From the IMG/VR virus record IMGVR_UViG_3300045988_149624: DNA of 64,000 bases. The stretch is one strand, 5' to 3'. A program made the position numbers and the translations under genes. The notes beneath the pieces were generated by a model that saw nothing but the letters and a program-made list of their open reading frames with translations, was not told the DNA's origin and ran no database searches. Shown here one piece after another: positions 10,174 through 29,054 of this stretch (position 1 is the first letter of the stretch; each line of letters starts with the position of its first letter). This DNA comes from a virus.

Positions 10174-10710
10174 CACAACCATACATACAGTAGAAGTATT
10201 CCACTATACACAGGATATAAAGGAGCGACATATGATTCTTCTACTAGAAAGTTCACACTTGCACCATATAACAATTATGTAGATGTTGTATCTACTGGTT
10301 CTACTCAATTAAAAATAGTAGATGAAAGTATAACAAGAACAGCTAATAAGGCTGATGGAACGTATTATATAATGTGTCAAGCGACAGGCTATAAGCAAAA
10401 GGGTAAGGAAAAAGCTATTAATTTACCTAGTGGACAAAATTTATTAAAAACTGAAAATCCAAGCTCTATACATGACAATGGTAATGGTCAACCTTGGTGG
10501 TATGCTTATACAGGTACTCTGCCAGTACAACCAACATACATTATGGTGGACTTTGGATATGATAAAGTCACATTTAATATGTATTATATTAAAGATGTAC
10601 TTACTAAAGATTTAGAAGAAAAAATTACAGTAAATGATTTTGACCCTACTAAGAATGAAAGAGTTTTATTTGATACACTTACTGTTAATTATTCAGACAG
10701 AAATAAATAA
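10171..10710 (+). CDS. Metallophosphoesterase tail protein, exon 2
   Basis: Begins (M)HNHTYSRS, which completes VDFVLCG|HNH = GHxH. The ATG at 10171 is probably intron sequence rather than a real start. Confidence 0.7.
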   Translation: MHNHTYSRSIPLYTGYKGATYDSSTRKFTLAPYNNYVDVVSTGSTQLKIVDESITRTANKADGTYYIMCQATGYKQKGKEKAINLPSGQNLLKTENPSSIHDNGNGQPWWYAYTGTLPVQPTYIMVDFGYDKVTFNMYYIKDVLTKDLEEKITVNDFDPTKNERVLFDTLTVNYSDRNK

Positions 10711-13700: not shown

Positions 13701-16700
13701 AAAGAAAGATTGTTATATTGTGATACTTTATTCGGATATGAACCTTCTACTTCTAATTTTGTTACTGTTCGTTGTAATAAACAAGGTAAGGTTTCGATGA
13801 ACATATCGACTTATAGTCCTATGTATTTATCTGTAAAATGGAGAGACGAAGCAGATGGCAGCGGAACACAAACATTAAAAATACCTAGAAATAAATCAGT
13901 TAAATTTAGTTATACGATTCCTACTGCTACAGATCAGGAAGTTATTATATATGGGGCAGAATACATCAAGTCTTTAGGAGATTTAAGTACCTGCAATCCA
14001 ACTCACTTACTTTTATCAAATGCTACGAGAATAAATGAGGTAATATGTAGAAACAGTTCAAAATTAGTAAATGCAGAAATAAATGGTTGCAGCTATTTAC
14101 AAAAAATAGATTTTAACGGCTGTTCTAATTTAGGTAGTTTAACCAGTTATCAGGTTATGGAATTAGCTACCTGTCAAAACTTGAAATATTTAGATATAAG
14201 AGGAACAAAAATGACAGGGGTAAACTTTGATAATAATGGTGGTAACTTAGAGGAAATATATCTTCCTAAAACAATAACATCATTATACTTGAGAAACCAA
14301 TATGCTTTAAAAATTGTAGGTTTGACAAGTGTTAGTTGGTATTCTCCATTTCATACAGAAGCTTTAAGTGGAGCAAGTGATATAACATCATTTACATTAA
14401 TTAATTGTCCTTTAGTAGAAAGACTTACTACCCGTTCAGATATAAGTATGAGTGGATGGAATCAAACATTTTATGATTTTAATGGGAATGCAAGGAATGT
14501 GGATACATTAGGAGATTATGAAGACGCTACTAAGTTTAGAAAGATGGCTCTTTTTGGACTAGGATTATGTAATGCAACTTCTATTCATATAGAAAACAGT
14601 ATGTTATCTACTAGATATATGTCTTTTAGATTTAATTATAGACTAGAAGAATTAACATTAAAATACCTACCTAATCTTCAAGAGTTGACTATTGGAGAAA
14701 CTCAAACAGGACATAGATGGAATGTAACAGATGATATGTGTGGTTCTTTTGATTTTAATAATATTAATATCACAGAATGTCCTAATATAAAAACATTTAG
14801 AATACATCAATATGATGAGAGACAACCTAAATGGTTTAATAGTGGAACTAATGTAATAGATTTAACTAAGTTTGAAAATCTTGAAACATTTACTTGTAAT
14901 ATTACTACTCAAGATTTAAACACGATAATTCTTCCTTCTACATTAAAGATGATATGGATTAAGCCGATGTGTGGATTCTCTAGTACTAATTATCCTAATA
15001 ATTGTTTAAAATCAAAATGCACTCTAAAGAATATATATTTTAAGGAAGACCATCCAAACGGATATGAAGGAATAGACTTTGGAAATAGGGAATTAACAGA
15101 ATTATGTTTATCTGGGGTAATACAGTCAACAGGAACAATAACTGGGGTAAATACTAAAAATACTTATGTTAGTCCTGTATTTAATAATATGAATGAAAAA
15201 GAAAGAGGTTCTGAATCTTATCCTGAAGTAAAAGTCCAAGGGAAAATAGACTTATCTAATTATGATTGGACGGAAGCATACTGGTGGTTCACAAATGTTA
15301 ATTTTACTTCTGATAATTTAGAATTTATTATGCCTAATGACTGGGATTATCTAATAGATACTCGCTTGAAAAGAGTAAGAGGGGTATTCTTTGATTGTAC
15401 AAACCCAAATTTTACTTGGGAATTTGCAGGTAGATTTTTTAAATTATTACAAGACAGAGATGATTTAGGAAAAACATATAAATATGCAACACTTCAAGAA
15501 CAATCTTCTTATGAAGAACAGGCAGTTACAATAGAAAATAATTATGATATAGCAGATTATAACTATGGAGACACACCTTTTGTTGGTTCTAATCTTAAAT
15601 ACATTAGAGAATGTAATTTTAAAGGAAATGCTATAGCATATGGTACTTTCAGAAATTCAAATCTTGTAAAAGTTGGAACAATTACTTGTAGTGGCTCAAA
15701 TGTATGGTGGAGTTCCGAAAGTTTATTCCAAAACAGTAAAAACTTAGAAGAAGTAGAGTGTATCAATATGACTGGAGCTAATAGTACTACAAACTGGTTT
15801 GCTAGTTGTCCTAAATTAAAAAGAGTTGGAACAGTAAATGTAAATGCTAAGAATATAAATCAAATGTATGCTTATTGTCCTCAGCTAACAGAATTAGCAT
15901 TACCTACTTTAACTAATTTAGAGAGAATGAGTGGGTTTGTTAGAGGGTGCACTTCTTTAACTGAATTACATCTTAATGAAATAACAGAAAACACTCCTTT
16001 AGAATATATGGACTGGGCATTTAGAGATTGCCCTAATTTAACTTCTGTAACTATTGGAGGAACTACTCTACCCCCAACATTGGTAACAATGGAGGGAGCG
16101 TATTATGGAGATAAAAAGCTTACAAAAGTAATTCCTTTACCTAATGATTTTAGTAATAAATGTAGTATGCGTTCTTGTTGTTATGGTTGTTCTTCATTAA
16201 CAGATGATAATATATATAAAACTCTTCCATATAATGTAAGTAATATGGATTATATTTATTATGCTTGTCATGGATTGACAAATCCGTCTATAGTAGTCAA
16301 TTCTGACAGAACAAGTTCTCAATCTTGTTTTGAGGGGTGTGCAAACATAAAATCTGTTAGAGCAGAATTTAATGGTACATATTCTTATGGATTTAATAAT
16401 TTCTGTAATAACTGTGGAGAACTCACAGATGCTTATATTAAATTCCCTTATTCTCTATATTTTAATGATGATGCACAGACTTGCTCTGAAAATGGGAATA
16501 TATTTGCTTATTGTAAAAAGCTTATAAACGTAGAGTTGAATATGACTAGATTAGAAAGTAAATCAGATTTTAGAGCAATGTTTAGACAGGATAAATATAT
16601 AGAATCTATAAAAGGATTTGATTTAAGCAATCTTCATAGAGATGATAGAAGACCAAATGATAACGCTTGGTATTTTACTTATGATACATCTTTTGAATTT

Positions 16701-16928
16701 ATGAAGGATTGGGTATTTGCGACAGACGAAAATGGTAATACTAAAAAATTAACAAATTCATATAAGATGTATAATTTAGAATTAACTCCTGCTGCTACTA
16801 TAGAATCTCTTATGAATGGGTTAGGAACAGTACAAGCAGAAACATTAACATTAGGTCAAGCAACCTTAAATAGGCTATCGGAAGAACAAAAAGCTAATGC
16901 AGTAGCAAATGGTTGGACTTTAGCGTAG
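10722..16928 (+). CDS. Giant tail fibre/receptor-binding protein: Gly linker, Ig-like repeats, LamG-like domain, CotH-kinase-like domain, BspA-type leucine-rich repeats
   Basis: AGAGGTGA RBS. LVLNGNTYVEIDM..GKVFINGVC (LamG-like). FRYYLFVQVFGGIDSLGKNMKIVTFDGIKWYLQVYDLDSLMG (CotH-like). Repeated F..C..L..V......(M/F)..C..LT in the C-terminal third. Confidence 0.75.
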   Translation: MPTIRKYNKETEKYKRIATSDALEVAILDAEGNFESDNVEGALRELGDAKGQIEVNRGIIDAVNSTLTDHIKNHPSGGGGGGTMPTISTDWNETSIDGDKDFTIPIYFTSPNLGEGTLYVLINNVETSIQTISQGNNTIKIPALGSGKKRLSIYVRDRGQLMSNQLTWDIVCGGIKLTVTMNTDIDYTLKDRILLTYNIDCDLQTDINTIITIDGTEYTVKSNKGYNSYEIKGLTVGVHKVEIYATADVYSTPSQVFNVIVVATEQLFITSTFDTTKQYEKGQPMNINYRVSIANTDYYTINMYVDDFEKPIKTLSQQPGNYYWTFTPEFELGKHTLRIEAYNSDKSKTATLDLPFELVASSYQAMEYVSTGLIASFNAKNRTNSDVDRGYWVDDINGYIGRLYNSNYGTNGWIDGELVLNGNTYVEIDMTPFSDNVTRGFTLDMVFSVEDIGNPLARVIDCTSLSAPYPGLYVNPYKANLATVSHKTELDIGQGEDIQITFMIDRVSKFGKVFINGVCCDPFQLSDSSSGSQIIYEQIKHEEKIYLNSEKGTSNFGSCKIKRIMMYERELSDEEVLQNRIADMKIEEQEEEYNKNYNDAYMPCMYIYGDISNMTLTNKKEVRIKYVSPNADLYGSSFEYPRCKMYWQGTSSIQYANKNFNIELGDSDGNQVFYTPFKNGILEYLFCLKCNQMESSNVMNTGSAMFVNDNLYVEKNPAQLKNDKVRQAIEGFPILLYINDEFVGLYDFNLDRYSYRSYGYNLFDKCLAYEVSANSDTTAGAFNSWTSSSGKTEQNYYASDFECLYPPSRQNGNDNFAELKTLVDFVSGADEDLFKEQFDTYFDRQSVFRYYLFVQVFGGIDSLGKNMKIVTFDGIKWYLQVYDLDSLMGLDNTGALTFDVDIEVESGVFNTSNSKLWSKIRLYFANELKQEYINMRNGVFTLENMYKYFYDNQMDKIPVRYYNKSTEYKYLRFGAKYLYACHGNRYFQIKRWLKERLLYCDTLFGYEPSTSNFVTVRCNKQGKVSMNISTYSPMYLSVKWRDEADGSGTQTLKIPRNKSVKFSYTIPTATDQEVIIYGAEYIKSLGDLSTCNPTHLLLSNATRINEVICRNSSKLVNAEINGCSYLQKIDFNGCSNLGSLTSYQVMELATCQNLKYLDIRGTKMTGVNFDNNGGNLEEIYLPKTITSLYLRNQYALKIVGLTSVSWYSPFHTEALSGASDITSFTLINCPLVERLTTRSDISMSGWNQTFYDFNGNARNVDTLGDYEDATKFRKMALFGLGLCNATSIHIENSMLSTRYMSFRFNYRLEELTLKYLPNLQELTIGETQTGHRWNVTDDMCGSFDFNNINITECPNIKTFRIHQYDERQPKWFNSGTNVIDLTKFENLETFTCNITTQDLNTIILPSTLKMIWIKPMCGFSSTNYPNNCLKSKCTLKNIYFKEDHPNGYEGIDFGNRELTELCLSGVIQSTGTITGVNTKNTYVSPVFNNMNEKERGSESYPEVKVQGKIDLSNYDWTEAYWWFTNVNFTSDNLEFIMPNDWDYLIDTRLKRVRGVFFDCTNPNFTWEFAGRFFKLLQDRDDLGKTYKYATLQEQSSYEEQAVTIENNYDIADYNYGDTPFVGSNLKYIRECNFKGNAIAYGTFRNSNLVKVGTITCSGSNVWWSSESLFQNSKNLEEVECINMTGANSTTNWFASCPKLKRVGTVNVNAKNINQMYAYCPQLTELALPTLTNLERMSGFVRGCTSLTELHLNEITENTPLEYMDWAFRDCPNLTSVTIGGTTLPPTLVTMEGAYYGDKKLTKVIPLPNDFSNKCSMRSCCYGCSSLTDDNIYKTLPYNVSNMDYIYYACHGLTNPSIVVNSDRTSSQSCFEGCANIKSVRAEFNGTYSYGFNNFCNNCGELTDAYIKFPYSLYFNDDAQTCSENGNIFAYCKKLINVELNMTRLESKSDFRAMFRQDKYIESIKGFDLSNLHRDDRRPNDNAWYFTYDTSFEFMKDWVFATDENGNTKKLTNSYKMYNLELTPAATIESLMNGLGTVQAETLTLGQATLNRLSEEQKANAVANGWTLA

Positions 16929-16936
16929 GTGATTAT

Positions 16937-17518
16937 ATGAATAATATAGAAATAATAGAAAAAAAAGGTTATAGAATATTAAGACCAAAAGAGGGTTATA
17001 TCCTTTATAAAGATGGAGAAATCTTTGAAGGAGATGTGATACTAGGAGTCAATGCGACTCCTAGTGCTTATTCTACTATAGAGGATGTAAATTATAAAGA
17101 AATACAAAAGAAAATTGAAGAATTAGACCCTCTTAAAGAATTAAAAGAACAGAGAATTGAGTTGAGCAAAAATAATTTAGCACAATATCTTAAAGATAAT
17201 CCATTATTTTCTACTGTTAAGTATGAAGAAGGAAGATATTATAATGTGACAATGGAGAAACAACAGTTGTTAACAAGTACTTTGCTTTCATATCAGTTAG
17301 ATAATATCTTTGGAACAGAATCAAACTTGAAATGGAATGACACCAAAAATGTATGCGAACCTTATTCTTTTGAACAGTTAGGGAGATTGTCTAAAGAAAT
17401 AAAATTATATGTTGAGCCATTAGTAGAAAAACAACAACAAATGGAAGTTAATATTAGAAATTGCAAAACAGAAGAAGAAGTGTTTAGTATTAAATTAGAT
17501 TTTGAAGGAGTTGATTAG
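16937..17518 (+). CDS. Hypothetical protein (possible fibre-assembly factor)
   Basis: Start set to the ATG 6 nt after AGGTGA. No recognisable motif. Confidence 0.55.
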   Translation: MNNIEIIEKKGYRILRPKEGYILYKDGEIFEGDVILGVNATPSAYSTIEDVNYKEIQKKIEELDPLKELKEQRIELSKNNLAQYLKDNPLFSTVKYEEGRYYNVTMEKQQLLTSTLLSYQLDNIFGTESNLKWNDTKNVCEPYSFEQLGRLSKEIKLYVEPLVEKQQQMEVNIRNCKTEEEVFSIKLDFEGVD

Positions 17519-18316
17519 ATGAAAGAGTTAATTGATTATTTTAATGAAAAATATACTAAAAAGAAAGAGTATATTTGTAAAGATTTAAACCCTATTAAAT
17601 TATTAAATAGCGATGAATACGATAATTTTAGGGGTGAAGCTGGTTTAATAATCCTACAAAAACTTCAATATTATCCATTATTTAAAGTGCCGAAGATAAA
17701 AAATAATAGACCAGCATCTATTGGTTATATTTTAAAAACGGATAATGAAGAATATAAAGGGAGCATGAAACAAGTTGTAAGAAACGGGCATAAACTAAAT
17801 GCATATAGCAATCCTTATATTAGAATTGCAATAAACGGAGACGAGGTTGCTTTAGATAAAAATAATATATCTATAAACGTAAATAACTGTTCTTTAACAT
17901 TATATATAGATTCTCCTGAGCTACCTAAATTAGAATATCCTAAAAATAAAATGGATATGTATAGAGCGTTAAATTTTATAGAGGCAGTATGCTATTCTAT
18001 TTATGACATTAATTTATTTGGGCTTTTTAATGAGGCAATGAATGATATCTTCTCCCCTAATAATATAGATGAAATTGATTTATTTTTAGAAAATTCTCTA
18101 TTTTGTGTTGGTTTTAACATTAGAAACAATGCTTATTTTGTAAATCCTGATAAAGATAATTACTATACAATATTAGATGCAATCAAAAAAGGAAAAGCAA
18201 TATATAAAGATTTAGAGACACCCCTTGTTAATTGGAAGATAAATAAAGAAGAAAAAGTAATATATTTAGGAGAGCTAATGGCTACCGAAAAAGGTTTAGG
18301 ACTACCACCAAACTAG
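17519..18316 (+). CDS. Member A of the shared N-terminal-module family (divergent)
   Basis: MKELIDYFNEKY at the N-terminus and a later EYPKNKMDMYRALNFIE segment resemble the MN.LIKYFNE.Y..YPRTT.QIYR.YQ.IK module. Confidence 0.6.
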   Translation: MKELIDYFNEKYTKKKEYICKDLNPIKLLNSDEYDNFRGEAGLIILQKLQYYPLFKVPKIKNNRPASIGYILKTDNEEYKGSMKQVVRNGHKLNAYSNPYIRIAINGDEVALDKNNISINVNNCSLTLYIDSPELPKLEYPKNKMDMYRALNFIEAVCYSIYDINLFGLFNEAMNDIFSPNNIDEIDLFLENSLFCVGFNIRNNAYFVNPDKDNYYTILDAIKKGKAIYKDLETPLVNWKINKEEKVIYLGELMATEKGLGLPPN

Positions 18317-18329
18317 AAAGGAGTTTAAA

Positions 18330-18677
18330 ATGAACGAATTAATTAAATTATATAACAATAAATATTCTAAAATAGAATATCCAAAAACTAAATTAGATTT
18401 TTACTATGTTTATTTATTTTTACAAAATAAAATAAATGAATATGATGATGGTGAATTAAGAAAATTATTTGAAAAAATAGAAATTCCAAAACCAACAACT
18501 CTTAAAGAATTGGATATATATAGAGAGTGTGTTGACTTTATTAATGGTATTAGAATTTCTAAAACAGGAAACAAAAGTACTCATTCTCTTAGTGATACTT
18601 CCTATAGATTGGGGTTTCATGAAGTTTATGAAGAAAATGGATATTTATATTATTATCTTGAAGGGGGAATGGAGTAA
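18330..18677 (+). CDS. Member B of the shared N-terminal-module family (short, 115 aa)
   Basis: MNELIKLYNNKYSKIEYPKTKLDFYYVYLFLQ...EKIEIPKPTTLKELDIY. Confidence 0.6.
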   Translation: MNELIKLYNNKYSKIEYPKTKLDFYYVYLFLQNKINEYDDGELRKLFEKIEIPKPTTLKELDIYRECVDFINGIRISKTGNKSTHSLSDTSYRLGFHEVYEENGYLYYYLEGGME

Positions 18678-19093
18678 TGAAAAAAATAATAGATAAATAT
18701 AATGAAAAGAATCTTTTACCATTTCCACTGCCATATCCAAAAACAGATTTACAAATATTAAAAACATATAAATTTTTATCTATGATTCAAGATGATGAAA
18801 TACAAAAAATGTTAAAAGATATTAAATTGCCTAAAATAGATTCTTGGAAAGATTATTTTTCTTTAAATGAAGATGGGAACGAATATTATACTATAAGTGT
18901 GCCAAAAGAAACAAATGAGTGGGAAAATGAAATAGACGAGATAGAAGAAGCTATAAGAAAAGGTAAGATTATTCTAGTAGAAAACGATGAGGGTATAATA
19001 TGTACTGCTGAAAGTGTGGAAATAAAATTGGAGACCAAAAAGATACAGATTACAACTAAAGATTCTGATTATGGGAATATGGGACCCGTATAA
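18677..19093 (+). CDS. Member C of the shared N-terminal-module family (short, 138 aa)
   Basis: MKKIIDKYNEKN..YPKTDLQILKTYKFL...KDIKLPKIDSWKDY. TAATG overlap with the upstream gene. Confidence 0.6.
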   Translation: MKKIIDKYNEKNLLPFPLPYPKTDLQILKTYKFLSMIQDDEIQKMLKDIKLPKIDSWKDYFSLNEDGNEYYTISVPKETNEWENEIDEIEEAIRKGKIILVENDEGIICTAESVEIKLETKKIQITTKDSDYGNMGPV

Positions 19094-19131
19094 AGAACTA
19101 ATTAAATTAATTAAACACTTATAAATAATTT

Positions 19132-19159
19132 AGAGTAGGGGTTGCCCTACTCTTTTTTT
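19132..19159 (+). terminator. Rho-independent terminator (copy 1 of a duplicated terminator/RBS cassette)
   Basis: AGAGTAGGG-GTTG-CCCTACTCT followed by T7. Confidence 0.85.
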
Positions 19160-19179
19160 AATATAAAGGAGATGGTTTT

Positions 19180-19965
19180 ATGGTATCAAAACCAAAAATG
19201 ATAGAAAGTTTTATTACAAAAAATAAATATAGTAGACCCGGAACAAAACGTTCAAGAACTACTAAAATAGCATGGCATTATACTGGTGCGCATGATGTAT
19301 CTGCTAAAGCAACCATGAATTACTTTAAAAACTTAGCAACAACACATACAACTTATGCAAGTTCTCACTTTGTATGTGGACTTGATGGAGAAATATATTA
19401 TATAGTTCCTATGAGTGAAATAGCATATACAACTAACAGTGCAAACTATTATTCTATCGGTATAGAATGTGCAACTACTGGAACTGATGACCATTATTCA
19501 GATAAAGAATACGTGTCTATGGTTAAATTAGGAGCTTGGTTGGCTCAATATTACGGATTAGACCCTAGAAAAGACTTTATAAGACATTATGATGTAACTA
19601 GAAAGGTATGCCCAAGATACTTTGTTAATCATAAAGATAAATGGAATCAGTTTAAATTAGATTGCTATAATCTTAAAGAAGGTAAAATAAAAGTATCTGA
19701 TATTGTGAATTGTACTAATGGAAAAAAACATACTTCTAAAGTCCCTAGCACTACAACTAAAAAACAATATTTAAGAGTGCTTCAAGATGTTAATGTACAT
19801 AGCACTCCTGACTTTAAGTCTAGTTCTGTTTGTGGTAAAGCAGAAAAAGGAGAAGCGCTTACTATTGTTAAAAAGATAGAGAGACCCGGAACAGATATGT
19901 ATTTAGTGAAGGCAGGTTATTATATAACTGCTAGTAGTAAATATGTAGAAGTATTTGAGAGATAG
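19180..19965 (+). CDS. Endolysin: N-acetylmuramoyl-L-alanine amidase (Amidase_2/PGRP type) with C-terminal SH3b-like domain
   Basis: IAWHYTGA..SSHFVCGLDGEIYY..YSIGIECA..RHYDVTRKVCPRYF. C-terminal LRVLQDVNVHSTPDF..GEALTIV. Confidence 0.85.
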   Translation: MVSKPKMIESFITKNKYSRPGTKRSRTTKIAWHYTGAHDVSAKATMNYFKNLATTHTTYASSHFVCGLDGEIYYIVPMSEIAYTTNSANYYSIGIECATTGTDDHYSDKEYVSMVKLGAWLAQYYGLDPRKDFIRHYDVTRKVCPRYFVNHKDKWNQFKLDCYNLKEGKIKVSDIVNCTNGKKHTSKVPSTTTKKQYLRVLQDVNVHSTPDFKSSSVCGKAEKGEALTIVKKIERPGTDMYLVKAGYYITASSKYVEVFER

Positions 19966-19973
19966 GTGATTAA

Positions 19974-21545
19974 ATGAATAAATTAATCAAATATTTTAAT
20001 GAAAATTATGGGAAAGAATATGGAAAAATCTCTTATCCAAGAACAACAATTCAAATATATAGAGCGTATCAAGCCATAAAGAGTTACGGTATAGATGATG
20101 AAAAGTTGATAAGTTTATTACACGACATTAAACTTCCTCAGCCTAAAACAATAGAAGAAAAAGAATTATATGCCGATTGTTTATATGATTTAGATGATAG
20201 CGAATTATTAATGGGAGTCCCTTATACACAAAAGATAAAAATTTTGGAAAATTCAATTCCTGTAGAACAATATAATGGGAATTATGGTTATCGCTCTAAT
20301 ACTTTTGATTATAATATAAAAAATTTAAATATTAAAAATCCATCACATATAGAAATAGATATTTATTATGGGGAAAATTTAAATACAGAAATAGAAGAAA
20401 GCGATTATCATTTCAACGGAGTTTTACTTTTGAAAGAAAGTAACGATAGTACTTATGACTTTTGGTTTCCTGCGTTAGAAATAAAAAATGATGACTATGG
20501 GGATTCTTCAATATATTTAGTATTGTGGATATATAAACATGGAGGGAAAATAGCAGTAAGTCATAGACTTCATGATGATACATATATTTCTATGTTTTTT
20601 ATTAAAAAAATATCTTTAAGTTTTTACGAAAATAAAGGAGGCACAATTCAAGCACCTCAAATTGGAAGCGTAGATGCCAGAGCTTTAATTAACAAAGAAG
20701 ATGGATTGAGTGATTACGCCACATCTTCTAATCCTGTATTTACAGGAAAAGTAGTTCAATATAAGGATAATGCCCAATCTTATGAGGGAGGGAATGGTAG
20801 TGCTAGATTTGGATATAGTAGTTCAGGAGAAAACAGTTTCTCAAGTAACTGGGGTTCTGCATCTGAAAAGTATAGTTTTGCAGCAAATACAGCGTGTGCT
20901 TTTGGAGAAGGTTGCTTTGCTATTGGTAAGGGCACTCATGCTTGGGGAGAGAATCAATTTGTATTTGGTTCTAATAATATATATGATAAAAAAAATAAAT
21001 ATATGTGTATAGCAGGGAATGGAATAGATGCAGATAATACCAGTAATGCTTATACGTTAGACTGGAATGGTAATGCTTGGTATAAAGGTAATATAAGTAT
21101 AGATGGCGCTCCAACTAATGACAAAGATTTAACTACAAAAAAATATGTAGATGATTATTTAAGTCCTTTAGTGAAAAAAGTCGGAGAAGTTACAACTCAA
21201 GTAGCACAAGAACACGTTCCAACTGCAACAACTACATATCTAAATAATATGTTTAATTTAGTTGAAATACCTATAACAAATTCTACTTTAACATTAACTT
21301 CTGCTAGAAATCAAACTCCTACTGGTGGAGTAATGGTTGATGGAACTACTATTGTATTACCTGAAATAGATTATTTTACAGAAATACATTTATTTTTTAA
21401 AGCAGATGCAAATATGAATTTAACATTACCCGATATTAAATATCAAATGACTACGGATATAGTTGGAGGTAAAATATATGAATTTATCTTTACTCATTTG
21501 AATGGATTAAATGAATGGATAGGAGGATATGTAGCTTATGTGTAG
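19974..21545 (+). CDS. Tail fibre, member D of the shared N-terminal-module family
   Basis: Strong N-terminal module. Gly/Ser/Ala-rich head-like repeats (GENSFSSNWGSASEKYSFAAN..GEGCFAIGKGTHAWGENQFVFG). NAYTLDWNGNAWYKGNISIDGAPTNDKDLTTKKY is shared with ORF 27753. Confidence 0.75.
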   Translation: MNKLIKYFNENYGKEYGKISYPRTTIQIYRAYQAIKSYGIDDEKLISLLHDIKLPQPKTIEEKELYADCLYDLDDSELLMGVPYTQKIKILENSIPVEQYNGNYGYRSNTFDYNIKNLNIKNPSHIEIDIYYGENLNTEIEESDYHFNGVLLLKESNDSTYDFWFPALEIKNDDYGDSSIYLVLWIYKHGGKIAVSHRLHDDTYISMFFIKKISLSFYENKGGTIQAPQIGSVDARALINKEDGLSDYATSSNPVFTGKVVQYKDNAQSYEGGNGSARFGYSSSGENSFSSNWGSASEKYSFAANTACAFGEGCFAIGKGTHAWGENQFVFGSNNIYDKKNKYMCIAGNGIDADNTSNAYTLDWNGNAWYKGNISIDGAPTNDKDLTTKKYVDDYLSPLVKKVGEVTTQVAQEHVPTATTTYLNNMFNLVEIPITNSTLTLTSARNQTPTGGVMVDGTTIVLPEIDYFTEIHLFFKADANMNLTLPDIKYQMTTDIVGGKIYEFIFTHLNGLNEWIGGYVAYV

Positions 21546-21954
21546 GCTAAATTTAATGATGTATAACCCTAAAAGAGTTCCTAAAATGAGTGCCAAACTT
21601 GAAGCAGATGGAAATAAAATATATTTCTATGGTATATTTAATGACTTTAAAAATAAAGATAAATATTATTTTAAAGAAGTTAAGCATGGAATAATTTATA
21701 TTAATTCTACAAGAATCACTGATAAAGGAAGCTTAACTGACGAGACTGAAGGTAGGACAAGAGTAAATTTTGGAACATATAAAGAAGATGGAAGTGTTAA
21801 ATATAGTATGAAACCTTATAATAAATCGTTGAATTATTTGGCAGTTGCTTTTTGTTCTTATGTAGATGAAGATGGTAAAACAAAATATGCCTATTCGGAT
21901 GTGGTAGAAGGTAATGCAACAGATGGATTCGTTCAAAGATATCCTCATAAATAA
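21538..21954 (+). CDS. Hypothetical protein
   Basis: The ATG overlaps the upstream stop, with AGGAGGA upstream. No motif recognised. Confidence 0.5.
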   Translation: MCRLNLMMYNPKRVPKMSAKLEADGNKIYFYGIFNDFKNKDKYYFKEVKHGIIYINSTRITDKGSLTDETEGRTRVNFGTYKEDGSVKYSMKPYNKSLNYLAVAFCSYVDEDGKTKYAYSDVVEGNATDGFVQRYPHK

Positions 21955-21977
21955 AATTTTATAAAATATAATAATTT

Positions 21978-22005
21978 AGAGTAGGGACTTCCCTACTCTT
22001 TTTTA
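21978..22005 (+). terminator. Rho-independent terminator (copy 2 of the duplicated cassette)
   Basis: AGAGTAGGG-ACTT-CCCTACTCT followed by T6. The stems are identical to 19132..19153 and only the loop differs. Confidence 0.85.
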
Positions 22006-22028
22006 TTAAATACAAGGAGATGTAAAAT

Positions 22029-22292
22029 ATGGATAACAAAAATAAGGTTAAGAAAAAACGTAGTACTAGAAAGTGGGTAATACCTTTAGTAATCACATCT
22101 ATATTTGCTTTCACAGGTATTGCGATATGGTTACAATATGCTACTAGCACAGAGTTATCTTCAACTTTAATAACTTGTTTCTACGGATTTTGTGGTGGTG
22201 AGCTTTGGCTATTAGCATCTATCACAAAAACAAAAACAAAGAATAATAATAGTGAAAATATAAATACTGATGATTCAGAAGGAGAGGAATAA
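22029..22292 (+). CDS. Holin candidate (two TM helices, charged C-terminus)
   Basis: AAGGAGA RBS. Basic N-terminus, TMs WVIPLVITSIFAFTGIAIWL and LITCFYGFCGGELWLLASI, acidic tail DDSEGEE. Confidence 0.6.
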   Translation: MDNKNKVKKKRSTRKWVIPLVITSIFAFTGIAIWLQYATSTELSSTLITCFYGFCGGELWLLASITKTKTKNNNSENINTDDSEGEE

Positions 22293-22295
22293 AAA

Positions 22296-22631
22296 ATGGA
22301 TGTTCAAACTATTTTAATATCATTTATAATATCTATAGCTGTTATATATACAGTATACAAATTTATTAGTTTAAGTAAAGAAAGACAAGTAGAAAATATC
22401 AAACAATGGCTTATATTTGCCTGTCTTGAAGCTGAAAAAATGTTAGGCAGTAAAACAGGTAAAGTAAAATTAAGATATGTGTATGATTTATTTGTTAGCA
22501 AATATAAATTTATATCTTGTCTTATCCCATTTGATACTTTTAGTAAATGGGTAGATGACTCATTAATAGATATGAGAAATATGATAAACACTAATAAAGC
22601 TATCAAAAAGATAGTAGAGGGAGTTGATTAA
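22296..22631 (+). CDS. Holin candidate, LL-H-family-like (one N-terminal TM)
   Basis: N-terminal TM ILISFIISIAVIYTVYKFI followed by IFACLEAEKMLGSKTGKVKLRYV, which resembles the LL-H holin family. Confidence 0.5.
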   Translation: MDVQTILISFIISIAVIYTVYKFISLSKERQVENIKQWLIFACLEAEKMLGSKTGKVKLRYVYDLFVSKYKFISCLIPFDTFSKWVDDSLIDMRNMINTNKAIKKIVEGVD

Positions 22632-25600
22632 ATGAATGAATTAATAAAATATTTTAATGAAGAATATAGTAAAGAATACGGAAAGGTTTCTTATCCTAGA
22701 ACTACTCTACAAATATATAGAGTATATCAAGCTATAAAATCTTATGGAATAAATGATGATAAATTGGTTGAGTTGCTACATAACGTAAAATTACCTAAAC
22801 CTAAAAATACAGAAGAATGGGAGTTATATGTTTATTGTTTATATAATATGGATGATAGTGAATCAGAAAGAAAGATTAAAGATATTTCGAACAAACTAGA
22901 AATACTTCCTGTAAAAAATACACATCAGGTTATCCGAGATGGAGTACCAGTTTCTCAACAAAATATAACTTTAGATGGAAATAACTATAAAGCATATATA
23001 TTTAATGACGAACAAATAACAATACCAGACAGCTTAGTATTAGAAGATTTTGAAAATAAGTTTTTAGCCATAGCTTCTCACTCTAAAGGAGTGTTAAATG
23101 CCGTCATTTCATATAATGATGGTGTAAATGATATAACAAAAGAAATAGAATTGACACGTGACGAAAATTTTACTTCAAACTATTTTGATTATAGTGACTA
23201 TACTGAATCTAGTATATTGAATATAACATTTGGATTTGACTATGGTATTAACAAATTTTTTATATACGTTTATTATATGAAACAACCTATGAAATCTCCG
23301 ATTTTTTATGAGGTGAAAAAAGTTTCACTTTCATATTCGTATATTACCAACTTACTAGATGACGATTATTTAAAAAGTATTGATTATTCTAAAATTAATA
23401 ATGTCCCTTATAAGTTAACTGCTCTTGTAGAGGGTTCAACAAAAACACTAAAGACTGGGGAATATGCATCTTTATTCGATAATTTATTTATTTGGGATGC
23501 CAATAAAATAAATGAACGATTAGATGATACAAGTGGAGTAAAAAAGAATGAATATTATGAGCATAATATAAAAGTTAAACAAAAAGATAGTGAAGGAATA
23601 GGTTACGGTCAATATATTCCAGCCGAGTCCATGTCTGAATATAAATTATTTATTAAAGCTGGTCCCGATGTTATAGTAAGGGTTTACCAACATAAAACAA
23701 AACAATTATTAAATAAAATAAAAGATTTCCCTCTTGGAGAATACAAAGAAATTATGGTAAGAGACGGCTTAAATAGAAGTGACGGAATATTTATTGCTTT
23801 TACTGTCAAAGATGATGTAACAGATTTTTATGCTAATACTTATGTTAGTGATTTAGTTTTATGTAAATCAGATGGATTTTTAACTAAACAAGAAGTAGAT
23901 AATAAAGTTGATAAAGTAGAAGGCAAAGGATTATCTACAGTAGATTTTACTACTGCTTATGAAACTAAACTTAAAGGATTGTCTAATTATAATGATACAA
24001 TTATTAAAAACGATATACAAACAATTAATACACAATTAGGAGATATTGCGAACACAGGTAAATTGACAGATTTAAATACAACTGAAAAATCTAGCATTGT
24101 CGGTGCAATAAATGAGGTTTTTCAAAATGCCAGTAATGGTAAAACTTTAATTGCTCAAGCTATTACTGGCAAAGGTGTATCAACGAGTAATACAGATACA
24201 TTTCAAACTATGGCAACTAATATAAACAGTATACAGACAGTTTCTGATGCGAGTGGCATTATATTTACTTTAAATAATAAAAAATACAAGCTATCCAAAA
24301 ACGATAAAGGAGAATATATTGCCACTTTATTAGCTTATTCCGTAACAAGTAATTTAACTCACTGCACTTTAGATAATACTAATACTTCTATTGATTATGG
24401 AAATAAATATACTTGTAATATTTCGGTAAACAAAGGTTTTATTATAGATTCTGTCGTTATTACTATGGGTGGAACAGATGTAACCAGTACTGTTTTAAAA
24501 GGTAACATTATTACTATAAATTCTGTTACAGGGGATGTTATTATAACTGTGAATTGTGTTGAAGAACCAGCTAACCCTGTTTATGGAAATATAAAGGCAA
24601 CTCCTAACTATACTTTTAAAATAAATGAAATTAAAGGAAAACTTGACCCCGATTTACAGGTTAGCTTAGCAACAGCTCCTAACTTAAACCAAACAATTAC
24701 TATAACAAATAATACTCCCGAATATATTACAATATCTCCTAACACTCTTACTTTTACTCCCGATAATTATTCAGTACCACAAAAAGTTAGTATTTCACCT
24801 ATAAGAAAAAATAATGATTATTTAGATAGACGTGGTGAATTAGTATTAAGTAGTAAGGGGGTTACTGATTATACAGCTAAATGTACTATAATTAATACAG
24901 ATAATTACATCCATCCCTCAAATTGTACTTTAAGTGATAAAGTACTTGATATACACGCTTATGGATTAAATAGTGTTCCTACAACATTGGAATCAAGTGT
25001 TAATAATATTTCCTGTGCAGTTACACCAATTTCCAATGAAGGTGACGATAATGTTAGTAAAGCTACAGCTAATGGATTACAATATGTAACTATTGATGTT
25101 CCTAGTTTAAAACCATATCTTAATGAGTCTAAAGGCATAACTGCTATTTATGTTAGTATGGGGTATCCTTTTGTAGATAAGAATTTAAACTCTTATCTTA
25201 ATTTGTTAGGTATTAATTCTACTAAAATGAATAATTCATCATATCTATTTGGTTATACAAAAAAACCTTCTACAAAAGGGTATGAAGCTTTAAACTCATA
25301 TTTTTATACTTCATTTAATGAAAAGACTACAAGTGCCGATTTACATTTTAATGTATTTATGTTTAATCCTTCTGATGCACCTGTCGGAATTACTTATATG
25401 ATTGATGATACTAATTATACAAGCATAGGAAGTACTGGTTGGTTTGATTATGGTAAGGATTTAACTAGCAAAATTAGTTCTTATAAAAATGTATCTAAAG
25501 AATCGAACACAACTTTTGTTGCATATCAAGTATATAACGGAATACTTAGTTTAGATGATATAAATACTATTAAAAATGGGATATTGGAAAATTTAGTTCC

Positions 25601-27647
25601 TAGTGAGGTTACAAATACAATAGACAACATGACTGTAAACGTTGGCGATACTATATTATCTACAGCTACTGTTCTTCCTACTGCATTAGAACCGATGTGT
25701 ACTAAATCTATAACATTAAAGGATGATAAACTTATAAAAAATAAAAATGAGGTAATTGCCAAAGCAGAGGGTCAATCTTCTTTTACTACAACTATTTCTA
25801 AACCTCTCGCAGGTGGAAAAACTTATGATTATAATTTTGATACTAATGTAACTATAGCCCCAAGTTATATAAAGGATTTAACTGTTACCAAAGCAGAAGA
25901 AGGTGTAGTTATATCTAATCCTATTAGTGAATTAACTGTAGGGCAAGAATATTTATTGATTGGAACAACACTTCCACCTCGTTTTGATGAAGAAAATATT
26001 GTTTATTATGAATCATCTAATATAGAAGTTGCTAGAGTTAGATATGGGCTTGTAGAGGCGTTAAAGGAAGGTTCTTGCACTATAACTGCTTATAATCATG
26101 ATAAGACATATAGTTACCAAATGCCTCTTACTATAAAACCTAAAAAAGAACGTATTTTTACAAATATAAAAACTATCAATCCTTCTGATTATTCTTTTAG
26201 TGCTACTGATTATGAAGGTAATTATAGATTAATGAAACAAATTATAGAAGAGGATAGTGCTGGTTATGATAAAGTTGTTTTTCCTAAAGGTTCTGTTTTT
26301 AAATTAAAAATGCCTCTAGGTACTACATATAATGAAGATGGTAGTGTTAATAGTTATCAAGCAGAAAGTAGTATAATTCCTAACAGTAATACGGTTTATG
26401 ATTTTAATAATTCTCGTATCGAAATGCAATTCTCTGAATATTTATCATTGGATTCAGTTTATAAAGATGGAATAAAAGTTACGCGTGGATATAATTTGTT
26501 TAATTTTACAACCAAAGATAACCCAGAATCTTCTATTGGACAATATCAAACGGTTCTTGAAGACTCCGAAATACGAAATTTAACTATAGTAGGTGAAAGA
26601 CAATTATTCCCCGAACAATATAATGATAGTGATGGTGGTTGGCAAATACGTTATGTGAATTTTGCTACTTGTAAAAGATGTGGTATAGTTAATTGTGACA
26701 TTGGTTGGTGTACTGGATTTAATATAGGAAGTGTTCATGGGCAACAATCATGGTCACCTATTATACAGGGAAGTCATATTGAATGGGGAGCAATAAATTA
26801 TGAAACTGGTGAAGATGATACTACAACTTATACAGATAGGGTTAGAATTAAAAAGGCTAATATTTGTCAGTTACATAAACGAGTTATAAATAAATATACT
26901 AATGACAATAGTTATTCTGTCGGCATATGGGCTGGATATTTAGGTTATGATTATATGGGAGCTAGATTTTATGATATATTCTTTTATAAACATGATGAGG
27001 CTACTGATACATATGAGTATCTTGGTTGTCATAAATATGAATATTTATATGGTATATATGAATTTCCTAAAGATGCTACTCATTGTAGACTTGTGTTTTA
27101 TCAAAAACGTCTACCCCCTAGTGGTGGATTAAATTATTTAGGTGGTGGAATAATGATGATAACACATCTTCCAACAAGTGTTGATTGTTATATTGAGAAT
27201 TGTTATATACACGATAATTATGCTAGTGGATTTGCTTGTTGTGGTGGACAGAGATTCTTAGTTAAAAATTGTAAATTTGAACGTAATTATGGAAGAGATG
27301 GATTAGGTTGTCATGTAGATTTTGAAGATGGTAGAGAAGGTGCAAACTGTTGTATAGTTAGTAACTGTACTTTTGACGATAACTATTACGGATTTATAAT
27401 GCCTTCGGGATTATACGAAGTATTACATGATAATGAATTTAATGGTTGTGGTGTAAAAACAACAACTGAAAGTATTTTGATGTTTAATAATATTCATAAA
27501 AATACGCATTTTACTAGACAAGAAATAGGCGAGGCTATTGTAGCAAATAGTATTTTTAGTAATGTTACTATGAATGAAGTTGCTAGAAGTGATTGGGAAA
27601 AGGATTATAAGTGGAAAATGCACATGATTAATAATCATATGATATAA
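22632..27647 (+). CDS. Large tail fibre/tailspike, member E of the family: fibre repeats, Big_2-like domains, C-terminal right-handed beta-helix (pectate-lyase-like depolymerase)
   Basis: Strong N-terminal module. DKVEGKGLSTVDFTTAYETKLKGL and TEKSSIVGAINEV fibre motifs. Big_2-like VGQEYLLIGTTLPP..SSNIEVARV..EGSCTITAY. PbH1-like NCYIHDNYASGFACCGG..VKNCKFERNYG..SNCTFDDNYYG. Confidence 0.8.
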   Translation: MNELIKYFNEEYSKEYGKVSYPRTTLQIYRVYQAIKSYGINDDKLVELLHNVKLPKPKNTEEWELYVYCLYNMDDSESERKIKDISNKLEILPVKNTHQVIRDGVPVSQQNITLDGNNYKAYIFNDEQITIPDSLVLEDFENKFLAIASHSKGVLNAVISYNDGVNDITKEIELTRDENFTSNYFDYSDYTESSILNITFGFDYGINKFFIYVYYMKQPMKSPIFYEVKKVSLSYSYITNLLDDDYLKSIDYSKINNVPYKLTALVEGSTKTLKTGEYASLFDNLFIWDANKINERLDDTSGVKKNEYYEHNIKVKQKDSEGIGYGQYIPAESMSEYKLFIKAGPDVIVRVYQHKTKQLLNKIKDFPLGEYKEIMVRDGLNRSDGIFIAFTVKDDVTDFYANTYVSDLVLCKSDGFLTKQEVDNKVDKVEGKGLSTVDFTTAYETKLKGLSNYNDTIIKNDIQTINTQLGDIANTGKLTDLNTTEKSSIVGAINEVFQNASNGKTLIAQAITGKGVSTSNTDTFQTMATNINSIQTVSDASGIIFTLNNKKYKLSKNDKGEYIATLLAYSVTSNLTHCTLDNTNTSIDYGNKYTCNISVNKGFIIDSVVITMGGTDVTSTVLKGNIITINSVTGDVIITVNCVEEPANPVYGNIKATPNYTFKINEIKGKLDPDLQVSLATAPNLNQTITITNNTPEYITISPNTLTFTPDNYSVPQKVSISPIRKNNDYLDRRGELVLSSKGVTDYTAKCTIINTDNYIHPSNCTLSDKVLDIHAYGLNSVPTTLESSVNNISCAVTPISNEGDDNVSKATANGLQYVTIDVPSLKPYLNESKGITAIYVSMGYPFVDKNLNSYLNLLGINSTKMNNSSYLFGYTKKPSTKGYEALNSYFYTSFNEKTTSADLHFNVFMFNPSDAPVGITYMIDDTNYTSIGSTGWFDYGKDLTSKISSYKNVSKESNTTFVAYQVYNGILSLDDINTIKNGILENLVPSEVTNTIDNMTVNVGDTILSTATVLPTALEPMCTKSITLKDDKLIKNKNEVIAKAEGQSSFTTTISKPLAGGKTYDYNFDTNVTIAPSYIKDLTVTKAEEGVVISNPISELTVGQEYLLIGTTLPPRFDEENIVYYESSNIEVARVRYGLVEALKEGSCTITAYNHDKTYSYQMPLTIKPKKERIFTNIKTINPSDYSFSATDYEGNYRLMKQIIEEDSAGYDKVVFPKGSVFKLKMPLGTTYNEDGSVNSYQAESSIIPNSNTVYDFNNSRIEMQFSEYLSLDSVYKDGIKVTRGYNLFNFTTKDNPESSIGQYQTVLEDSEIRNLTIVGERQLFPEQYNDSDGGWQIRYVNFATCKRCGIVNCDIGWCTGFNIGSVHGQQSWSPIIQGSHIEWGAINYETGEDDTTTYTDRVRIKKANICQLHKRVINKYTNDNSYSVGIWAGYLGYDYMGARFYDIFFYKHDEATDTYEYLGCHKYEYLYGIYEFPKDATHCRLVFYQKRLPPSGGLNYLGGGIMMITHLPTSVDCYIENCYIHDNYASGFACCGGQRFLVKNCKFERNYGRDGLGCHVDFEDGREGANCCIVSNCTFDDNYYGFIMPSGLYEVLHDNEFNGCGVKTTTESILMFNNIHKNTHFTRQEIGEAIVANSIFSNVTMNEVARSDWEKDYKWKMHMINNHMI

Positions 27648-27648
27648 A

Positions 27649-27672
27649 TTCGTAATTTAAAAATATTACGAA
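27649..27672 (+). terminator. Hairpin/weak terminator after the tailspike gene
   Basis: TTCGTAAT-8 nt-ATTACGAA followed by ATTATTTA. A second 8-bp hairpin AAGAGTGG/CCACTCTT lies at 27695..27720. Confidence 0.45.
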
Positions 27673-27752
27673 ATTATTTATCAAACTGAAATTCAAGAGT
27701 GGTAACAAACTGCCACTCTTATCATACAAAAATCAATAAAGGAGTTGATTAA

Positions 27753-28682
27753 ATGAATAAACTAATTGAGTTTTTCAATGAAAAATACGGAGACAAATAT
27801 GGGAAGATTCCTTATCCAAGAACAACAATGCAGATATATAGAGTATATCAGTCTATAAAAAGTTATGGGATAAAGGATGAAGAGTTAGTTAAATTGTTAC
27901 ATAATATTAAATTACCTAAACCAAAATCTATAGAAGAAAAAGAGTTATATACAGATTGTTTATACAACAAAGATGATAGTGAGATGGTAATAGATACAAG
28001 TAATTTAATTTCTAAAGAAAACCCTGTATTTACTGGTAGTATGAGTATGAATAGGAAAGAAGGGGCAACTATAGGAGAATATAGCGTTGCTATCGGGAAA
28101 ACTGTTGAAGCGTCAGGAGAATGTTCTTATGCAGAAGGTAAGAATACAACTGCTAGTGGATGGAGTTCTCATGCAGAAGGAGAGGAAACGAAAGCTAAGG
28201 GGCAAACTTCCCACGCAGAAGGAGATAATTCAATCGCTGAAGGCATAAGTTCCCACGCAGAAGGCAGTTATGCAGTTGCCAGTGGAATAACTTCTCATGC
28301 AGAAGGAGAGGGAACAAAAGCTTATGGAAAATCATCTCATGCAGAAGGTAGTTTTACAACTGCCTCTTCAAATTATCAACACGTTCAGGGTAAATATAAT
28401 ATAGAAGATAAAAGTAATAAATATGCCCATATAGTTGGTAATGGTAAAAGTGGTATGGAAAGAAGTAATGCACATACATTAGACTGGGAAGGTAATGGTT
28501 GGTATGCTGGTAAATTATCTCAAGAAGGTACGCCTACCGAAGATAAAGATTTAGTTACTAAAAAATATGCAGATGCTTCTTTAGAAAATAAAGTAGATAA
28601 ATCTCAATTATCATTTAATTCTGACGGAGAACTTGTTGTAACTATAGATGGAATTAGTAAAACATTCGTACCTAAAGCCTAA
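27753..28682 (+). CDS. Tail fibre, member F of the family, with SHAEG head-like repeats
   Basis: Strong N-terminal module. The motif (S/Y)(H/Y)AEG recurs about 7 times at ~14-aa spacing. NAHTLDWEGNGWYAGKLSQEGTPTEDKDLVTKKY is shared with ORF 19974. Confidence 0.8.
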   Translation: MNKLIEFFNEKYGDKYGKIPYPRTTMQIYRVYQSIKSYGIKDEELVKLLHNIKLPKPKSIEEKELYTDCLYNKDDSEMVIDTSNLISKENPVFTGSMSMNRKEGATIGEYSVAIGKTVEASGECSYAEGKNTTASGWSSHAEGEETKAKGQTSHAEGDNSIAEGISSHAEGSYAVASGITSHAEGEGTKAYGKSSHAEGSFTTASSNYQHVQGKYNIEDKSNKYAHIVGNGKSGMERSNAHTLDWEGNGWYAGKLSQEGTPTEDKDLVTKKYADASLENKVDKSQLSFNSDGELVVTIDGISKTFVPKA

Positions 28683-28824: not shown

Positions 28825-28904
28825 TTTTTAAATATAATAAATATTTTAATATATAAATGCGAATAATATAGATAAGTTATTCTATTTGTATTATTTATGG
28901 ATTA

Positions 28905-28940
28905 CCCTCTAGTCTTATGGCTAGGGGGTTGTTTTTATTT
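28905..28940 (+). terminator. Rho-independent terminator
   Basis: CCCTCTAG-8 nt-CTAGGGGG (one G.U pair) followed by TTGTTTTTATTT. Confidence 0.7.
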
Positions 28941-29005: not shown

Positions 29006-29054
29006 AATATCAGAAAGGGCAAAAAGTCCACTTTAAATGATATGGAGGGTTAAT

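Follow-up and report, generated by a model that had tools for sequence, protein, structure and literature searches.

Why does one phage genome carry, in close succession, six genes whose products begin in the same way and range from 115 to 1671 amino acids (aa) in length? The question is posed by positions 17519-28682 of a 64 000-nucleotide (nt) stretch of viral DNA (IMG/VR record IMGVR_UViG_3300045988_149624), which as a whole we call the window. A first-pass annotation, made from the letters of the DNA, had noted an N-terminal module of about 75 aa in six open reading frames (ORFs) of this region and had proposed that it docks alternative receptor-binding proteins on one site of the virion. 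We find that the set of six is real, and the module is probably the common head of a family of exchangeable receptor-binding proteins.

Six genes with a common N-terminal module

All six module carriers are encoded on the plus strand. Three are short, namely o17519 (17519-18316, 265 aa), o18330 (18330-18677, 115 aa) and o18677 (18677-19093, 138 aa), and three are long, namely o19974 (19974-21545, 523 aa), o22632 (22632-27647, 1671 aa) and o27753 (27753-28682, 309 aa). The module comprises residues 1-78 of the long proteins (19974-20207, 22632-22865 and 27753-27986, respectively) and residues 1-76 of o18330 and o18677 (18330-18557 and 18677-18904); in o17519 it is divided. Pairwise identity among the three full modules is 57-73% across 77-111 aa (BLASTP, E = 1e-35 to 1e-39). 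Compared with them, o18330 shows 35-39% identity (E = 1e-10 to 1e-12) and o18677 29-41% (E = 1e-6 to 1e-9). A hidden Markov model (HMM) built on the five collinear copies, with o17519 left out, gave E values of 5.5e-31 for o18330, 5.8e-28 for o18677, 9e-41 for o19974, 5.8e-40 for o22632 and 7e-42 for o27753. It recognized o17519 as well, with a whole-sequence E value of 1.9e-8, and no ORF besides these six on either strand of the 64-kilobase (kb) window. The membership of the three weak copies is thus significant, and on these alignment statistics chance similarity among the copies is excluded.

The first-pass annotation had suspected that the module of o17519 is split by an insertion of about 120 aa, and this reading holds. 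Positions 1-15 of the HMM align with residues 1-15 and positions 15-67 with residues 134-191, so that helix 1 of the module (aa 1-15, 17519-17563) is separated from helices 2-4 (aa 134-191, 17918-18091) by a beta-rich insert (aa 16-133, 17564-17917). A small alpha/beta domain follows (aa 192-265). The AlphaFold2 model has the same topology (mean predicted local distance difference test score, pLDDT, of 80): one helix is predicted at residues 2-12, the beta-rich insert occupies residues 17-130, further helices lie between 144 and 189, and an alpha/beta domain forms the C-terminus. Two relatives bear the reading out: P0177 (144 aa) has the module unsplit, and P0175 (624 aa) has an insert of the same kind and of about 120 aa in its module, joined to a fibre of the o19974 type. 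No fold was assigned to o17519, insert included, as Foldseek returned only generic beta-sandwich matches with E values of 0.03 or higher.

Conservation of the roughly 15 nt before each start codon had also been claimed for the whole set; it applies to part of it. The sequence GGAGTTGATTA(A/G)ATGAA is exact at 17519, 22632 and 27753 and degenerate at 19974, where it reads ATAGGTGATTAAATGAA, while at 18330 and 18677 upstream conservation amounts to the Shine-Dalgarno sequence and no more. The duplicated or exchanged unit takes in these ~15 nt 5′ of the start. At 17504-17521 and 22617-22634 the element GGAGTTGATTA(G/A) at the same time encodes the ...EGVD-stop terminus of the preceding gene, p201 in the first instance and a 111-aa membrane protein in the second. 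The stop codons of both abut the next ATG, which suggests translational coupling.

What follows the module differs from one long protein to the next, although not so completely as had been stated. In o19974 it is a Gly/Ser-rich fibre, and the C-terminal parts of o19974 and o27753, which had been listed among unrelated ones, are 35% identical over about 230 aa (BLASTP, E = 4e-26). The giant o22632 shares its first ~470 aa with shorter variants in related genomes, and its residues 452-599 match a PHROG tail fibre family (E = 1.4e-13). It had been described as a Big_2 plus beta-helix depolymerase. This is borderline: Big_2 reaches 17.1 bits where the cutoff is 22.8, and para_beta_helix 19.3 bits where it is 19.45, both sub-threshold, and a search of PDB sequences gave no match. 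From its sequence the C-terminal region may form a parallel beta-helix. In o27753 the module is followed by a head-repeat shaft like that of trimeric autotransporters (aa ~95-236), which matches YadA_head and the head of BpaC (PDB entry 7o23, E = 1e-15). Since this shaft is homologous to the head of a trimeric adhesin, the module of o27753 would head an obligate trimer.

The last residues of o27753 (aa 290-309, 28620-28679, plus strand) form a C-terminal tag of about 20 aa, ...N.G(E/D)L(V/I)(V/I)T..(V/I)(S/T)K(T/I)F.PK, that ends one or two residues short of the C-terminus. It occurs in 13 of the 64 module proteins of the loci examined and in eight of 99 representatives of the clusters; a few neighbours without a module (ORFs of 518 and 206 aa) have it too, and L008, L011, L015, L017 and L018 are among the loci concerned. 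Four proteins, P0009-P0012, consist of the module, a short linker and the tag region, and nothing more. Receptor-binding proteins do not usually have a distal tip that is conserved.

Fold and family status of the module

In an AlphaFold2 model based on an alignment of 31 family members, the module is predicted to be a compact domain of four helices (residues 2-16, 25-37, 43-51 and 60-70), with pLDDT above 90 over residues 1-70, and a disordered linker follows at residues 75-110. The invariant residues are M1, I5, N9, Y21-P22, Y32, D42 and P55, and they include the loop motifs YP(R/K)T and LP.P. The module has no match in Pfam, PHROGs or NCBIfam; the best hit of a profile search against the PDB has an E value of 0.06, and Foldseek finds no neighbour of the predicted fold in the PDB or BFVD (best E > 2, template modelling score < 0.35). 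Neither a signal peptide nor a cell-wall-binding family was detected in it. That the module could not be placed in a known family, regulatory families included, is therefore upheld. It appears to constitute a previously undescribed domain family, predicted to be all-alpha, without a match in the databases searched.

Distribution and partner domains

The profile was run exhaustively against 1.84 billion representative proteins (E ≤ 0.001, hits clustered at 50% identity). The module was found in 116 clusters, nearly always at residues 1 to about 78, in proteins of 46-1598 aa. A few clusters are of the split type; relatives of this type reach E values of 7e-6 to 8e-4 against the entire library. 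Two hits, P0178 (an EF-hand repeat protein with seven weak repeated matches) and P0217 (a repeat protein), were discarded as false positives.

Partner domains were surveyed in 44 diverse long representatives. The great majority serve in receptor binding or in glycan degradation. They comprise Phage_fiber_rpt, YadA_head, a pectate-lyase-like beta-helix, the Laminin_G_3 lectin, Big-like domains and CotH, together with enzymes (BNR sialidase, polysaccharide lyase, GH16, GH30 and NAGPA) and many PHROG tail-fibre and tail-spike families.

Related loci and module subtypes

About 20 related loci share one gene order: the 2068-aa CotH protein, p201, a split-module protein (262-283 aa), module proteins of 115-116 and 135-150 aa, and the amidase, then an optional cassette, two small membrane proteins, one to four variable module proteins (236-1895 aa) and ParM. 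The split-module paralog is present at every main-clade locus that covers its position. Between variable fibres the modules are 56-99% identical (median 72%), that is, all variable fibres carry one subtype. Identity between fibre modules and that of the 115-aa protein is 38-49%, between fibre modules and that of the 138-aa protein 24-42%, and between the two short proteins 23-34%. Orthologs of the 115-aa protein are 90-99% identical across the relatives.

In a distant clade (L021, L022) a diverged module (MKKLIKMYNEKYGDTLGVIDDDF…) again heads several proteins per genome, long and short, and the multi-copy design is therefore old. Within the array of this clade a tyrosine recombinase gene lies directly 5′ of a module gene (L021, 11894-12895; L022, 9500-10519; L023, 1865-2884). 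This gene, like an integrase fusion that is considered below, may reflect site-specific rearrangement or an assembly artefact. Some fibres are encoded as a module ORF and a following or overlapping ORF, in the combinations M110+358, M244+304, M85+317 and M236+~500; such sites are found at L007 3731-5126, L011 10001-11815, L015 2074-3235 and L005 from 17147 onward. Each may be a pseudogene created by a frameshift, an error of assembly or a case of programmed frameshifting.

Exchange of cassettes and age of the copies

The repeated DNA had been thought to allow cassette exchange, and a comparison of related genomes for swaps at the junction of module and C-terminus had been suggested. Swaps are indeed found there. 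Blocks of homology between genomes start 12-16 nt 5′ of module start codons (window positions 22620 and 27737) and end at the end of the module (20197, residue 75 of o19974), inside it (22816) or deeper, at 24017-24052, which corresponds to residues 462-474 of o22632. The N-terminal 254 aa of the o27753 type occupy another slot in L004, with 94.5% identity at the DNA level. Among 98 non-identical long proteins, four pairs have modules at least 95% identical and unrelated C-termini, and four have modules ~73-75% identical and C-termini more than 80% identical. In the former, identity collapses at residues 78-85, right after …CLYN(K/M)DD(S/N)ELE.

The o19974 gene is itself an optional cassette, absent from L003, L004 and L006. 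At the equivalent of window position ~19974, L003 (11647-11682) retains ATGAATGAATTAATTAAATAT, seven codons that read MNELIKY and run from behind the amidase stop codon into the terminator hairpin. In genomes without the o19974 cassette MNELIKY is a relic of a module start and marks loss or replacement of the cassette.

Within the window the situation is different. The DNA of the three full modules is 76-77% identical, with longest common runs of ~17-18 nt; synonymous divergence (dS) is saturated at 1.4-2.7 and the ratio of nonsynonymous to synonymous divergence (dN/dS) is 0.05-0.13. Given the saturated dS and this level of identity, recent duplication or gene conversion was rejected as the source of the DNA repeat, and the combination of saturated dS with low dN/dS indicates that the copies are old paralogs held by selection at the protein level. 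Recombination between co-infecting relatives with nearly identical modules best accounts for exchange. The idea of exchange through the repeated DNA thus stands for related genomes, with junctions at the module end, and is the poorer explanation for the copies within one genome.

The conserved short paralogs

Two of the short proteins had been regarded as little more than the module itself, and this proved to be wrong. Beyond the module o18330 has a C-terminal extension of about 40 aa, which ends in ...YEENGYLYYYLEG, and o18677 has a C-terminal domain with an AIRKGK...ENDEGII motif. In hhalign comparisons the o17519 and o18677 families align through the module and a C-terminal AI(K/R)KGK domain (96.8% probability, E = 3e-10), and the o18330 and o18677 families over ~100 residues (97.4%, E = 1.4e-11), so that C-terminal sequence is common to all three.

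None of the three matches a Pfam, PHROG or NCBIfam family, Caudo_TAP, DUF4376 and other chaperone families included. By this comparison they are not tail-fibre chaperones of the Caudo_TAP or DUF4376 kind; the DUF4376-like neighbour is p201. Most probably the short paralogs are constant components of the attachment apparatus and serve as hub, socket or adaptor. We prefer a hub or adaptor to the competitors that had been envisaged because the three have distinct, conserved subtypes and a common C-terminal domain; judged from their sequences, such diverged and individually conserved subtypes argue against proteins that simply compete for the fibre site.

Proposed function of the module

We consider it probable that the module is the N-terminal particle-binding or assembly domain of all the interchangeable receptor-binding proteins, of which one to four specificities would be mounted in parallel. 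In this model the four-helix module would be joined through a flexible acidic linker to interchangeable fibres, adhesin-like shafts or glycan-degrading enzymes, and the one to four fibres of a genome would be expressed from separate, complete genes with ribosome-binding sites of their own. Since all fibres have the same module subtype, they would be mounted in parallel at equivalent sites, and such mounting would give one particle, or one burst, several receptor specificities. The three short paralogs (265, 115 and 138 aa), with their diverged subtypes and small common C-terminal domain, would belong to the attachment apparatus. Co-circulating genomes have the module in conserved form, and recombination just past it (aa 78-85) or at a few points further in would therefore swap the specificity parts. 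Here we infer that the proteins attach to the virion, that they are displayed at the same time and which role the short paralogs play.

Several points weigh against this model. The lineage is uncultured, and the module proteins are known here from their genes alone. Known anchors of receptor-binding proteins are beta-rich, whether T4 gp10-like, D1 beta-sandwich or triple beta-helix (PMC10253068), and among the anchors compared there is no documented precedent for a trimer headed by a four-helix domain that looks monomeric. An endolysin gene and genes for small membrane proteins lie between the fibre genes and share transcription units with them, and lysis genes in such a position are unusual for a purely structural block. 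One protein, P0131, joins the module and a shaft of ~85 aa to an integrase catalytic domain; it comes from a single 3.7-kb contig and was treated as an outlier for that reason. Finally, in L020 the module is borne only by a 138-aa protein, directly 5′ of large module-less fibre-like genes, and a covalent link between module and fibre is therefore not obligatory.

The arrangement in L020, and that in several genomes where a 108-aa module protein (M108) precedes module-less ORFs of ~95-250 aa and a protein of ~519 aa, would also suit a module that acts as an assembly handle, either a chaperone tag or a trimer-nucleating domain, with attachment elsewhere and the short paralogs as chaperone-like partners. 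Those paralogs are conserved, small and located beside the fibres, as chaperones might be, and their subtypes differ from that of the fibres as in heterotypic pairing. However, known fibre chaperones work on C-termini and their genes lie 3′ of the fibre gene (PMC7289586), the array already contains two chaperone candidates (p201 and the 138-aa ORF at 21538), the short proteins match no chaperone family, and anchors canonically have just this layout, at the N-terminus and with a flexible linker behind them. We regard the assembly handle as unlikely. The interleaved endolysin and membrane-protein genes, together with the many glycan-degrading enzymes among the partners, could instead indicate that the module proteins are not part of the virion and are late soluble or cell-associated enzymes or adhesins freed at lysis, such as free depolymerases or accessory lysis proteins, with the module as a tether to the host or its envelope. 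This is very unlikely in our judgement, as the partners also include typical fibre shafts without enzymatic function, heads of adhesins and PHROG families of tail fibres and tail spikes, the tail operon ends with this block, the module has neither a signal peptide nor a cell-wall-binding family, and hypervariability with mosaicism is typical of receptor-binding proteins. A store of alternative cassettes, used one at a time, in which the module serves as a substrate for programmed recombination of the kind seen in shufflons and the Mu G segment, might be suggested by the fact that each cassette starts with conserved module and ribosome-binding-site DNA, by the tyrosine recombinase gene inside the L021/L022 array and by the one integrase fusion. 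Against this, all copies in the window are complete genes in direct orientation with their own start and ribosome-binding site, ORF annotation over 16.9-34 kb of the window revealed no recombinase, and the 76-77% identity, ~18-nt longest run and saturated dS give no sign of ongoing conversion. We consider such a store highly improbable.

The particle-binding model can be made more specific, at the cost of becoming doubtful. The short paralogs, one of them with a beta-sandwich insert in its module, would form a hetero-oligomeric hub of diverged four-helix copies, with equivalent sockets into which the fibre-type copies fit. Particles would then show stochastic mixtures of one to four receptor-binding proteins, and M108 or M138 might recruit module-less fibres non-covalently, possibly through the ...NGELVVTI..K.FVPK C-terminal tag.

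Comparison with known systems

The depolymerases of Klebsiella phages (KP32, KP34 and Przondovirus types) have the organization proposed here for the module proteins, with a conserved N-terminal anchor, a linker and a variable, often enzymatic part, which is trimeric in the depolymerases and may be so here, and their distal parts are likewise exchanged between related phages. In contrast to these, the module is an all-alpha four-helix domain without a detectable relative in sequence or fold, and its lineage is that of low-GC, clostridial-type large phages or phage-plasmids rather than of phages of Enterobacteria.

Tandem genes for receptor-binding proteins with conserved N-terminal domains are also found in Ackermannviridae phage CBA120 (TSP1-4) and Alcyoneusvirus RaK2 (gp526-534), where these domains are considered to bring many specificities together on a single particle (PMC10253068). 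Those assemblies are hierarchical, with differing N-terminal domains (triple beta-helix anchor, XD and D1) that fix the place of each protein, whereas here all variable fibres carry one module subtype, accompanied by three short paralogs with diverged copies. As far as sequence can tell, a single subtype on all fibres implies parallel, equivalent docking. Foldseek comparisons with the PDB and BFVD gave no T4 gp10-like XD or D1 beta-sandwich fold for the module, the predicted fold of which is all-alpha. If the doubtful hub arrangement were true, display would be parallel and combinatorial, by a mechanism different from the hierarchy in which the CBA120 and RaK2 complexes branch.

The invertible tail-fibre segments of Mu and P1 and the shufflons also combine a constant N-terminal part with alternative C-terminal specificity parts. 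The module genes differ in being complete, in direct orientation and equipped with their own ribosome-binding sites; the window contains no shared N-terminal exon, inverted segments or adjacent invertase. As regards genome type, the Clostridioides difficile phages phiCD5763, phiCD2955, phiCD211-like and LIBA6276 resemble the carrier in size (~130-145 kb) and in their ParM-like protein and Pol III alpha, and these big plasmidial siphophages likewise have several tail-fibre genes in their structural cluster, as well as a lysis module. The module, however, is absent from them at the tblastn level.

The use of several receptor-binding proteins is already well documented, so that the present case is an incremental extension; what is new is the domain family and its unmatched predicted fold. 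Since receptor-binding proteins set host range, a conserved plug allows them to be found across the lineage and specificities to be engineered. The module is a sequence-searchable marker that retrieves about 100 fibre and enzyme architectures from prevalent, uncultured ~145-kb gut phages, residues 78-85 represent a precise swap point used in nature, and an all-alpha fold would be added to the short list of known anchor solutions. The finding raises the question of how fibres with identical anchors and three anchor-bearing small paralogs share one particle.

Arrangement of the array

Intrinsic terminators, all on the plus strand, divide the array into three units. The first, from the giant fibre to o18677, ends at the terminator at 19132-19153. 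The second begins with an endolysin (19180-19965, plus strand; Amidase_2 and DUF5776; Pfam E = 1.5e-22, PHROG endolysin E = 5e-33), continues with o19974 and a 138-aa ORF that overlaps its end (21538-21954, plus strand) and is closed by the terminator at 21978-21999. The third consists of two small membrane proteins, o22632 and o27753, and the terminator at 28904-28929 ends both the array and the late operon. The hairpins at 19132-19153 and 21978-21999 are nearly identical, AGAGTAGGG(GTTG/ACTT)CCCTACTCT with a T-run, and form a second repeated element of the block.

The 138-aa ORF has no family match. It accompanies the o19974-type C-terminus: L001, L002 and L011 have it together with M523 or M*624, and where these are missing it is missing too; we infer that it is a candidate cognate fibre chaperone. 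The two small membrane proteins (22029-22631, plus strand; 87 and 111 aa) are holin-like in size, transmembrane segments and position, and the pair is kept in all relatives immediately 5′ of the variable fibres. The label of holin was not adopted for the ORFs at 22029 and 22296, which have no significant match to a Pfam holin family.

Genome setting and lineage

The window is AT-rich (~28% GC) and consists of a rightward structural and lysis arm, up to ~34 kb, followed by a leftward replication arm. Its first ORF (2-3253, at least 1083 aa) runs off the window start and contains an SLT lytic transglycosylase, an NlpC/P60 peptidase and an SH3 domain; with two predicted cell-wall hydrolase activities it would fit a tape-measure protein or tail-associated lysin. 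Downstream of it a giant CotH-domain, fibre-like protein (10722-16928, plus strand, 2068 aa; CotH E = 2.4e-10) precedes the module array, which occupies the distal end of the tail operon. Between the two lies p201 (16913-17518, plus strand), the stop codon of which adjoins the start codon of o17519. It matches phrog_1348 'tail fiber protein' (E = 4.5e-5) and, below threshold, DUF4376 (E = 0.026), a marker of fibre chaperones (PMC7289586, PMC10579305). By these similarities p201 is probably the chaperone of the giant CotH fibre, and on account of them, weak as they are, a role as docking platform was set aside. A partition gene for a ParM-like actin (ALP_N) starts at 29037, downstream of the array.

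The carrier of the array is probably a phage-plasmid, a phage of ~145 kb. Relatives of the window are contigs of 140-148 kb, mostly from the human gut and from metagenomes only; among these, L001 matches window positions 8330-28677 with 100% identity. Among GenBank phages and PLSDB plasmids neither the module, at the tblastn level, nor the array region has a close relative. The sole matches among cultured phages and plasmids are distant clostridial and Bacillus phage-plasmids, through the DNA polymerase. The nearest cultured relatives by Pol III alpha are clostridial phage-plasmids (C. botulinum, 49% identity; C. difficile LIBA6276, 45.6%; C. tetani, 41%), which have been described as 'big plasmidial siphophages' (PMC5786514). 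A search of 185 579 species-representative genomes gave one match, L008 (CALEJY010000250.1, 81.6 kb), in a metagenome-assembled genome binned as Candidatus Melainabacteria. We rejected this as a host assignment, binning being unreliable for a plasmid-like phage contig.

Upstream of the giant fibre a 1.5-kb insertion (window 8668-10173) carries an HNH homing-endonuclease ORF (8923-10014; phrog_559, E = 5e-73), and an Rfam search detected no group I intron in it at E ≤ 0.01. The insertion splits one gene into ORFs of 638 aa (6755-8671) and 179 aa (10171-10710). In L002 and L003 the same gene is an intact 816-aa ORF with LTD and metallophosphatase domains, and in L004-L006 it is interrupted ~400 nt further upstream by another insertion, with a 308-aa ORF.

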